A program made the position numbers and the translations under genes. The notes under the pieces are model-generated. The model was given only the letters and a program-made list of their open reading frames with translations, was not told where the DNA came from and did not search any database. This document shows, in pieces, positions 11,651 to 13,402 of a DNA stretch of 31,443 nt (the first letter of the stretch is position 1; every line of letters begins with the position of its first letter). The stretch comes from Bacteroidota bacterium (GTDB taxonomy: Bacteria; Bacteroidota; Bacteroidia; Bacteroidales; Paludibacteraceae), in contig JAUZOL010000021.1 in assembly GCA_030706455.1 (NCBI GenBank), forward strand, positions 1 to 31,443. The letters are read 5' to 3'.

Positions 11651-12073
11651 ATGAAGATTCTTATTTTATGTACAGGAAATAGTTGCCGTAGCCAGATGGC
11701 TCACGGCTGGCTGCAATCGTTCGATTCGACCCTGACCGTTGGCTCGGCCGGAACGCAGGCAAGTGGTAAACTCAACGAGAAAGCGGTTGCCGTGATGCGC
11801 GAAGCGGGCATCGACATCAGTCATCACACTTCCGATCCGGTGGAGAAGTACCTCAACGAAGAGTGGGACTACGTGATTACCGTTTGTGGCGGTGCCAACG
11901 AGAGTTGTCCGGCTTTCTTTGGCAAGGTGAAACATCGTTTGCATATCGGGTTCGACGATCCGAGTCATGCAGTGGGTAGCGACGACTTTATCTGGAGCGA
12001 GTTCCGTCGTGTACGCGACGAAATCAAAGAAGGGTTTTATACGTTTTATATCGAGAATATCAAAGGAAAATGA
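11651..12073 (+). CDS. arsC: Arsenate reductase, LMW-PTP family, thioredoxin-coupled type
   Basis: MKILILCTGNSCRSQMAHGW (CX5R P-loop) plus VCGGANESCP (a Cys pair 7 residues apart, as in Cys82/Cys89 of the pI258-type enzyme). Confidence 0.9.
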   Translation: MKILILCTGNSCRSQMAHGWLQSFDSTLTVGSAGTQASGKLNEKAVAVMREAGIDISHHTSDPVEKYLNEEWDYVITVCGGANESCPAFFGKVKHRLHIGFDDPSHAVGSDDFIWSEFRRVRDEIKEGFYTFYIENIKGK

Positions 12074-13101
12074 GCATTGCAACTTCTATAAATTTGAATG
12101 AGCTCGGACTGCTGACTGCCCGCATTCCGCGCGTGTCGGCCCAATTGACTCTCAAAGATAAGTTGGGAGCATTAAAAGTTCGCTTCGGCATAGGGCGCGA
12201 CGATTACAAAGTAACGCCGGGGCTTTACAAGATCGGGAATCCCGACAGCCAGTCGGATGTGTTGCTATCGGCCAACTATAAGCTTAGCTTCGATATGTTG
12301 CGCAAAGAGCTGGGAGGCATGAATCTCTGGCTTTTGGTGATCGATACGAAGGGAATCAATGTGTGGTGTGCCGCTGGAAAAGGCAACTTCGGTACCGATG
12401 TGGTTGTACAAGGTATAAAAAAGACATCACTGGAGAGCGTGGTGACGCATCGCCGCATCATTGCGCCGCAACTGTCTGCCAGCGGAGTGGCGGCGCACAA
12501 AGTAAGGGAGCAGTCCGGTTTCAAAATTACGTTCGGACCGGTATTGGCCAAAGATATTAAACCGTTTATAGAAGCCGGATACAAGGCAATTGCCGAAATG
12601 CGGAGGGTACGCTTTCCCATGAAAGAGCGGGCCAAACTGATTCCGGTCGATTTTATGTACGGAAAATACAAGCTGCTGGCGGTTTTGGCATTCCTCTTTG
12701 TTATCGCCGGACTCGATCGTAGCGGCTTGTTGTTCGACAAAATGGCAAGCGAATCTGCCTTCCCGTTGATAACAATCTTTAGTGCGTATGTTGCCGGCAT
12801 TGGACTCACACCGCTCTTTTTGCCGTGGGTGCCTTTTCGTCCGTTTGCCCTGAAGGGCGCTTTCTGGGGCCTACTCACTTCCTTGTTGTGGATAGTGTTG
12901 CTGCGTCCCGTATTGCCCGAAGCCATTGCTATCGGACTGATTAGCCTGAGCGTCTCTTCTTTTATGGCAATGAATTTTACCGGATCATCCACGTTCACGT
13001 CGTTATCGGGCGTGCAAAAAGAGATGAAGTGGGCTATCCCTATTCAGATCGCAGCCCTTGCGTTGGGTGTTATTCTTTTTATCCTTTCAAAACTATTCTA
13101 A
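12070..13101 (+). CDS. hgcA: HgcA, corrinoid protein of the mercury methylation pair (N-terminal CFeSP-like corrinoid domain plus C-terminal 5-TM domain)
   Basis: The cap-helix motif NVWCAAGK reads directly at 12358-12381 (aat gtg tgg tgt gcc gct gga aaa). Flanking blocks are IPRVS, GLYKIGNP, LLSANYKLSFD and GTDVVV. The C-terminal half has about five hydrophobic helices. The start overlaps the arsC stop (ATGA). Confidence 0.88.
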   Translation: MSIATSINLNELGLLTARIPRVSAQLTLKDKLGALKVRFGIGRDDYKVTPGLYKIGNPDSQSDVLLSANYKLSFDMLRKELGGMNLWLLVIDTKGINVWCAAGKGNFGTDVVVQGIKKTSLESVVTHRRIIAPQLSASGVAAHKVREQSGFKITFGPVLAKDIKPFIEAGYKAIAEMRRVRFPMKERAKLIPVDFMYGKYKLLAVLAFLFVIAGLDRSGLLFDKMASESAFPLITIFSAYVAGIGLTPLFLPWVPFRPFALKGAFWGLLTSLLWIVLLRPVLPEAIAIGLISLSVSSFMAMNFTGSSTFTSLSGVQKEMKWAIPIQIAALALGVILFILSKLF

Positions 13102-13102
13102 A

Positions 13103-13402
13103 ATGAAGACGTTACAATATTTGAAGAACGTGGTTACCCTGAAACTGAATCCCGATTTATGCACAGGGTGTGGTATGTGTACCATGGTGTGCCCTCACGC
13201 GGTCTTTGAGGTGGTAAATGGCAAAGCCCGCATTATTGATATCGACGATTGCATGGAGTGCGGAGCCTGCGCGAACAACTGCCGATTTGGTGCAATTAGT
13301 GTCAAAGCCGGGGTAGGGTGTGCCGCGGGAATCCTGAACGGAATCTTGCGAGGCACCGAGCCGTCGTGCGATTGTTCTACCGGATCTAAAGCTTGTTGTT
13401 GA
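13103..13402 (+). CDS. hgcB: HgcB, 2x[4Fe-4S] ferredoxin partner of HgcA (99 aa)
   Basis: The ATG at 13103 is 1 nt after the hgcA stop; the track start 13058 is an upstream extension overlapping hgcA. Sequence: MKTLQYLKNV..CTGCGMCTMVCP...CMECGACANNC..GVGCAAG...SCDCSTGSKACC. It has two ferredoxin CxxCxxCxxxC motifs and a C-terminal vicinal Cys pair, as expected for HgcB. Confidence 0.85.
   Translation: MKTLQYLKNVVTLKLNPDLCTGCGMCTMVCPHAVFEVVNGKARIIDIDDCMECGACANNCRFGAISVKAGVGCAAGILNGILRGTEPSCDCSTGSKACC

Follow-up and report, generated by a model that had tools for sequence, protein, structure and literature searches.

The 31,443 nucleotides of contig JAUZOL010000021.1 (GenBank assembly GCA_030706455.1), referred to here as the window, contain the adjacent genes hgcA and hgcB, whose products are associated with mercury methylation. 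It is likely that these are bona fide Paludibacteraceae hgcA and hgcB, that they are two internal genes of an 11-gene arsenic resistance (ars) operon controlled by ArsR and that, by homology, they are mercury-methylating genes. A first-pass annotation, made from the DNA alone, had proposed the gene pair and was silent on the ars operon surrounding it. The gene call is correct and was already known, so adds nothing new by itself: the exact HgcA of the window is GenBank entry MDP4201895.1, ‘MAG: mercury methylation corrinoid protein HgcA [Bacteroidota bacterium]’, and the nearest isolate, Paludibacter jiangxiensis, is a listed hgc+ strain. Neighbourhoods in which hgcAB lies next to arsR, arsC, acr3 and sometimes arsM have also been published for diverse metagenome-assembled genomes (MAGs) (McDaniel et al. 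2020 mSystems Fig. 6; Gionfriddo et al. 2023; Peterson et al. 2025). Those reports gave ‘several examples’, whereas here the linkage is quantified for a clade centred on Bacteroidales. Modestly new are this quantification, the evidence that the genes are vertically inherited and selected in Paludibacteraceae, and the finding that arsM and hgcAB alternate at a single place in the operon. The gene pair is made up of the following features.

12070 to 13101, + strand: hgcA, corrinoid-binding domain (approximately residues 19-180) and five-helix transmembrane domain (approximately 193-342), model NF040863.
12358 to 12381, + strand: cap-helix motif NVWCAAGK, Cys100 being predicted to ligate cobalt as a thiolate (the counterpart of Cys93 of strain ND132); motif present in all 80 HgcA.
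13103 to 13402, + strand: hgcB, ferredoxin with two [4Fe-4S] clusters, Cys73 and a Cys-rich tail (C89/C91/C98/C99), model NF040864.

The 343-residue open reading frame (ORF) in which the first-pass annotation had seen an HgcA cap helix and corrinoid domain was found at 12070-13101 on the forward strand. NVWCAAGK occupies residues 97-104 (nt 12358-12381) and the corrinoid-domain blocks IPRVS, GLYKIGNP and LLSANYKLSFD are at residues 19, 51 and 65, respectively. Cys100 is the sole cysteine of the protein. When HgcA from 79 related loci was examined together with that of the window, the motif was found in 80 out of 80 sequences, as NVWCAAGK in 77 and as NVWCSAGK in three. The cap-helix octapeptide of strain ND132 is said to be the same as that of the window. 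The role of ND132 Cys93 as a cobalt ligand has been described (PMC7305189, PMC11588087).

Comparison with the NCBIfam equivalog models gave 407.7 bits for HgcA (NF040863, cutoff 275, E 3.3e-122) and 122.4 bits for HgcB (NF040864, cutoff 99, E 4.9e-36, residues 5-99). Within HgcA the only domain recognised by Pfam is CdhD (PF03599, E 1.4e-12, residues 45-158), the corrinoid domain also found in CFeSP, the corrinoid iron-sulfur protein, and a PDB sequence search returned the CFeSP gamma chains 2h9a, 4c1n and 4djd (E 1e-10 to 2e-7). This search found no solved structure of an HgcA, only CFeSP large subunits. The five or so C-terminal transmembrane helices expected from the first reading were seen as five hydrophobic segments by hydropathy (residues ~195-340) and as helices 193-214, 230-249, 259-278, 282-305 and 312-342 in an AlphaFold2 model with an overall pLDDT of 72. 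The best Foldseek match to this model was 9a0b_A, the published model of ND132 HgcAB, itself computational, with 42% identity over 326 columns. The next matches were CFeSP structures with 27-28% identity over ~145 columns, covering the corrinoid domain only.

The hgcB gene starts 1 nt past the hgcA stop (TAA 13099-13101, ATG 13103) and encodes the 99-residue double ferredoxin predicted earlier, with CX2CX2CX3C motifs at residues 20-30 and 50-60, Cys73 in the GVGCAAG block and a tail containing Cys89, Cys91 and the terminal pair Cys98-Cys99. After the first ferredoxin motif comes Pro and after the second Arg, which differs slightly from CxxCxxCxxxCP; in ND132 the second has Pro after it. The numbering of cysteines 20, 23, 26, 30, 50, 53, 56, 60 and 73 is the same as in ND132, in which Cys 20, 23, 26 and 60 and Cys 50, 53, 56 and 30 are the cluster ligands, Cys73 is essential and the protein ends in a Cys pair (Cooper et al., PMC7305189). 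The HgcB tail of ND132 has two cysteines whereas that of the window has four (CxC...CC). Four tail cysteines are usual in the Bacteroidales-centred clade: nearly all of the tails of loci L002-L081, like that of the window (13367-13402, residues 89-99), read EP(S/T)C(D/G)C followed by 4-8 residues and CC. In other respects the two systems are alike. ND132 HgcAB shares with the window the two-gene layout, a CFeSP-like corrinoid domain with five transmembrane helices, the cap-helix Cys, the HgcB cluster cysteines with Cys73 and a terminal CC, and an ArsR-family regulator upstream.

The Bacteroidota-like host suggested by the first reading agrees with the GenBank entry for the exact HgcA and with the synteny of both flanks with a Paludibacter sp. 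MAG. HgcA is 91% identical to that of the isolate P. jiangxiensis NM7 (WP_068703364.1), 90% identical to that of an uncultured Microbacter sp. and 87% identical to that of the Paludibacter sp. MAG, while HgcB is 95% identical to that of P. jiangxiensis. The DNA is therefore from a Paludibacter-like member of the Bacteroidales (Paludibacteraceae), represented by a species-level MAG other than P. jiangxiensis. The presence of hgcAB in Bacteroidota is established through many surveys. P. jiangxiensis was cited in 2020 as an hgc+ Bacteroidales isolate with an unconfirmed methylation phenotype, and it is listed in the literature with an ArsR-type regulator alongside hgcAB. The earlier description of Bacteroidota carriers as poorly characterised is consistent with the literature found.

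The two genes lie within a run of 11 genes on the same strand, arsR-arsE-arsF-arsG-arsP-arsC-hgcA-hgcB-arsN2-acr3-GNAT, with spacers of -4 to 130 nt. The features other than hgcA and hgcB are as follows.

8682 to 8723, + strand: putative ArsR operator/promoter, nested inverted repeats (I1, I2) around TAATTTTG, approximately 30 nt upstream of the arsR ATG.
8735 to 9067, + strand: arsR, ArsR/SmtB metalloregulator (NF033788, 57.9 bits, cutoff 55; Pfam HTH_5).
9198 to 9446, + strand: arsE-like thioredoxin-fold protein (TIGR00412 MTH895/ArsE, 122.9 bits, cutoff 62).
9443 to 9871, + strand: arsF-family gene with a 4-nt overlap with the arsE stop (NF040494, 102.2 bits, cutoff 60).
9878 to 10582, + strand: arsG-family permease of DsbD_2 fold (NF040495, 310.2 bits, cutoff 200; Pfam DsbD_2).
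10598 to 11617, + strand: ArsP-type permease, organoarsenical efflux family (Pfam ArsP_1 PF03773, 237.7 bits).
11651 to 12073, + strand: arsC, thioredoxin-coupled arsenate reductase of the low-molecular-weight protein tyrosine phosphatase type with Cys7, Cys79 and Cys86 (Pfam LMWPc).
13416 to 13853, + strand: arsN2, arsenic-resistance N-acetyltransferase (NF040501, 143.6 bits, cutoff 125).
13859 to 14890, + strand: acr3, arsenite efflux transporter (TIGR00832, 450.5 bits, cutoff 282.8).
14961 to 15461, + strand: GNAT acetyltransferase, ArsN1-like, last gene of the cluster (NF040503, 127.3 bits, below the cutoff of 170; Pfam Acetyltransf_1).

A regulator, an arsenate reductase and an arsenite efflux pump are thus all present, closely spaced and on the same strand. 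The best model for ArsC, TIGR02691, gave 129 bits, under its cutoff of 174. The likely start of arsR is the ATG at 8735 (MNCCEKQ...), the mechanically called ORF starting from a TTG at 8690, and ArsR has vicinal Cys pairs in an N-terminal CC and a C-terminal DLCCD. The same 11-gene operon, likewise with MgtC upstream, is present in P. jiangxiensis NM7. In ND132, by contrast, arsR alone adjoins hgcAB and the structural ars genes are elsewhere. In many Bacteroidales (L011, L055, L061 and L074, and the ArsC-centred loci L112, L131 and L150) arsR is present twice, once at the head of arsE-F-G-P and a second time directly before arsC-(hgcAB)-acr3. As the window and its Paludibacter and Microbacter relatives are without the second arsR, the two ars modules appear to be fused into one operon in the window.

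The TGA stop of arsC overlaps the ATG of hgcA by 4 nt (ATGA), an arrangement that probably couples the translation of hgcA to that of arsC. No terminator-like sites were found in any intergenic gap of the operon. The overlaps, the lack of intergenic terminators and the palindrome upstream of arsR suggest that the whole operon, including hgcAB, may be co-transcribed. No Rfam families or tRNAs were found in the window, hence there is no cobalamin or SAM (S-adenosylmethionine) riboswitch.

The region at 8682-8723 looks like a candidate ArsR operator overlapping a promoter. The sequence TAATTTTG (8697-8704) matches the Bacteroidota -7 box, TAnnTTTG. The 22-nt core, TTGTTCGTAATTTTGCGAACAA, is unchanged in Microbacter L002 and Paludibacter L003, in contrast to its flanks, which diverge. 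Palindromes of the form TTCG-N7/8-CGAA beside TAnnTTTG were also found in the more distant loci L005, L028, L043 and L045. A canonical Bacteroidota -33/-7 promoter was not found upstream of arsR, there being no -33 TTTG at the standard spacing. A scan for sigma-70 promoters was uninformative as it gave fewer matches than in shuffled sequences.

Purified HgcAB from Pseudodesulfovibrio mercurii (Desulfovibrio desulfuricans) ND132 uses SAM as methyl donor and has Co-thiolate ligation and [4Fe-4S] clusters (PMC11588087). By analogy, the two [4Fe-4S] clusters of the window HgcB would relay electrons to reduce the HgcA-bound cobalamin to Co(I). This would then be methylated by SAM to give methyl-Co(III), to which the thiolate of Cys100 would lend stability. 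The methyl group would finally be transferred to a Hg(II)-bis-thiolate, probably brought in by the cysteine-rich tail of HgcB, to give methylmercury. Delivery of Hg(II) by the terminal cysteines of HgcB has been proposed previously (Cooper et al., PMC7305189). Expression would be from one promoter upstream of arsR, derepressed by arsenite. There is a precedent for ArsR control in ND132, where the adjacent ArsR regulates hgcAB in an arsenic-responsive manner. All of the residues known to be essential are present and the organism may be expected, from sequence, to methylate mercury.

Several points weigh against this assignment. No demonstration of mercury methylation by any Bacteroidales strain was found in the literature searched (2020 and 2023 papers), hence methylation by the window organism would be an extrapolation from enzymes of ~42% identity. 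The AlphaFold2 model of HgcA is of moderate quality overall, as its pLDDT indicates, and poor around cap-helix residues 100-105. The placement of HgcA depends upon scores from hidden Markov models (HMMs), the Foldseek match and a neighbour-joining tree rooted on CFeSP. Finally, the putative promoter is defined by the -7-box match and the palindrome, with the canonical -33/-7 arrangement absent.

The close association with ars genes raises the question of the native substrate. It is possible, though rather unlikely, that HgcAB in the Bacteroidales-centred clade has an arsenical as its native substrate or an arsenic-related native role, or is otherwise needed in arsenic stress, and that mercury methylation is an arsenic-inducible side reaction. 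In one version ArsC would make As(III), HgcAB would methylate it using SAM and cobalamin, by analogy with ArsM, and ArsP would export the trivalent methylarsenical. In a variant HgcAB would be a thiol-metalloid handling module of arsenic detoxification. The position of hgcAB, between arsC and arsN2/acr3 and overlapping arsC, favours such a role, as does the wider linkage. This was measured in 80 species-level genome loci, mostly Bacteroidales, with HgcA of 45-90% identity, 62 of which had enough flanking DNA. HgcB was found within 350 nt downstream of HgcA in 79 of the 80. Among the 62, arsC lay no more than 600 nt upstream of hgcA in 28 and acr3 no more than 1.5 kb downstream in 31; both genes were within 3 kb in 32. 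Any structural ars gene was found within 3 kb in 41 (66%), and any ars gene including arsR in 50 (81%). About a third of the related loci with full flanks are therefore without a nearby structural ars gene, which counts against an arsenical role.

The gene that follows arsC was examined in a second survey of 80 metagenome loci with ArsC 79-93% identical to that of the window, 68 of which had enough downstream DNA. This position was occupied by arsM in 25 loci, by acr3 directly in 24, by hgcAB in 8 and by other genes in 11. Thus hgcAB and arsM share the slot after arsC in close relatives, and the two were never found together in the 68 ArsC-centred loci. The identity of arsM was assigned with NF008823 (336.7 bits). 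Loci with arsM directly after arsC include L084, L093, L098, L113, L117, L118, L121, L130, L134, L136, L137, L144, L150-L154 and L159. When both surveys were pooled, arsM was found in 6 of 58 hgcAB+ ars operons as against 21 of 48 hgcAB- operons (Fisher p = 1e-4), recalling that the pooled samples are not phylogenetically independent and were drawn in different ways. The six operons with both genes are HgcA-centred (L018, L042, L047, L050, L055 and L071). Strict mutual exclusion of arsM and hgcAB was therefore rejected and the pattern is one of depletion rather than exclusion. These six operons argue against an arsenical role whereas the rarity of arsM beside hgcAB, and the absence of arsM from the window together with the presence of arsP, argue for it. 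ArsM also resembles HgcAB in using SAM as methyl donor; it differs in having an unrelated Rossmann methyltransferase fold (NF008823), no cobalamin and no Fe-S clusters. Other occupants of the position after arsC are arsN1/arsN2, a PRK09272-family membrane protein and an ~800-residue ORF. An ORF of this length lies between arsN2 and acr3 in L118 (6336-8729), L137 (4103-6517) and L145 (7016-9397), and by eye we take it to resemble a bifunctional glutamate-cysteine ligase/glutathione synthetase.

Experiments on ND132 bear on an arsenical role in both directions. An hgcAB deletion strain is reported to be more sensitive to As(V), and hgcAB to be induced by arsenic (10.1101/2022.10.17.512643), but no mono- or dimethylarsenicals were obtained from ND132 cultures. 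No HgcAB-catalysed methylation of arsenic was found in the literature searched. The tail of HgcB was also considered as a possible site of adaptation to As(III), in which case more cysteines would be expected in ars-linked loci. This was rejected as the counts were alike, with 5 Cys in both linked and unlinked loci (Mann-Whitney p = 0.5), and the equality argues against an arsenical role. The cap-helix and HgcB residues are as in proven mercury methylators, and the sequence indicates no other substrate.

A passenger status for hgcAB is very improbable. In this view the pair would be a cassette in a variable, recombination-prone position of ars operons, sharing the mobility or regulation of thiol-reactive soft-metal genes with no biochemical link to arsenic and perhaps even being transcribed independently. 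The highly variable contents of the slot after arsC and the patchy presence of hgcA within Bacteroidales would fit with such a cassette. The gene order also varies among the HgcA loci, in that acr3 and arsC may each lie to one side or the other. However, hgcAB and ars genes are also linked in other phyla (Ignavibacteriae L052, Phycisphaerales L056, Bacillota L079 and PVC L080) and the identical 11-gene order is found in Microbacter L002, Paludibacter sp. L003 and L162, the last of which encodes the exact P. jiangxiensis HgcA. The chromosomal site is conserved as well: the window is collinear with L003 on both sides of the operon (2-1611, 8660-15461 and 24346-29643) and the nucleotide identity of the operon to L003 is like that of the flanks. 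The ratio of non-synonymous to synonymous substitution (dN/dS) between the window and L162 is 0.093 for hgcA, 0.038 for hgcB and 0.03-0.25 for the ars genes, hence hgcA and hgcB are under purifying selection. The GC content of the operon is no different from that of neighbouring DNA and no integrase or transposase domains were seen in the window. In addition, the 4-nt overlap of arsC and hgcA and the spacers of 1-13 nt leave no room for a separate hgcAB promoter in this lineage. Recent horizontal acquisition or a mobile island is not supported, given the flank-like GC content, the syntenic flanks and the lack of an integrase or transposase. The same gene order in relatives, the syntenic site, the low dN/dS and the unremarkable GC content indicate that hgcAB is a vertically maintained and selected part of the operon in Paludibacteraceae.

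The remaining alternative, that the ORF is a non-methylating paralogue (a fragment of a CFeSP large subunit or a fused-HgcAB-like protein) misread as HgcA, draws on the homology of the corrinoid domain with CFeSP and on a significant match to the fused-HgcAB model, but can be rejected with near certainty given that this match (196.2 bits, cutoff 285) and that to the CFeSP gamma model (74.1 bits, cutoff 306) are both below cutoff and far below the HgcA score, and given that hgcB is a gene of its own and that the protein has a transmembrane domain and a cap-helix Cys, the latter absent from CFeSP. The CFeSP large subunit (AcsC/CdhE) of the Wood-Ljungdahl pathway has a homologous corrinoid-binding domain with a cap helix but, besides lacking the Cys and the transmembrane domain, it works with another partner and, as a soluble protein, carries methyl groups to acetyl-CoA synthase. 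When the corrinoid domain was used to build a neighbour-joining tree, with a CFeSP fragment as root and without labelled fused-HgcAB or experimentally validated methylator sequences, the window protein fell among Bacteroidales HgcA; the distances were 1.3-2.1 to CFeSP and at most 0.75 within the HgcA set. The comparisons with curated HMMs and with ND132 that had been recommended for the gene pair thus both supported it: the two equivalog models were passed and the fused-HgcAB and CFeSP models failed, so that at the HMM level HgcA is neither a CFeSP nor a fused paralogue, and HgcA aligned with 9a0b_A while the HgcB Cys numbering coincided. A genuine hgcA-hgcB pair within an ArsR-controlled operon remains the preferred reading.

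Two segments of the window, at 1612-8654 and 15462-24345, have no counterpart in the Paludibacter sp. MAG L003 (the alignment did not include the L162 flanks). The first contains an RND efflux operon, with an adaptor at 2276-3373, a pump at 3386-6565 and an outer-membrane factor at 6562-7977, followed by an ORF of 213 residues at 7990-8631. The second contains an acyltransferase, an AraC regulator and an OEP/HlyD/MFS-like efflux set. A 649-residue ORF at 16801-18750 on the reverse strand gave no Pfam, NCBIfam or PADLOC match. Around it, at ~17000-19000, the GC content falls to 0.32-0.34, compared with ~0.45 in the rest of the window, and this ORF and low-GC patch may be foreign DNA. Further downstream are genes for a DUF4395 protein (24642-25229, + strand), a DHCW-motif cupin (25377-25730, - strand), a DUF559-like protein (25838-26227, - strand) and a TonB-dependent receptor (26626-29142, - strand). 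These are collinear with Paludibacter sp. L003 and have no evident operon link.

The native function and the regulation of HgcAB are standing questions, and in several anoxic waters a considerable part of the hgcA belongs to Bacteroidales fermenters. Within the Paludibacter lineage, expression of hgcAB without arsC and acr3 would be difficult, so that methylmercury output may depend on exposure to arsenic. Given that the cultured P. jiangxiensis NM7 has the same operon, mercury methylation by Bacteroidales, arsenic inducibility outside the Desulfovibrionaceae and any arsenic chemistry of HgcAB are directly testable. If the role of HgcAB in this clade were indeed arsenical, then HgcAB would be a cobalamin/SAM alternative to ArsM, and environmental mercury methylation by abundant fermenters would be arsenic-inducible.

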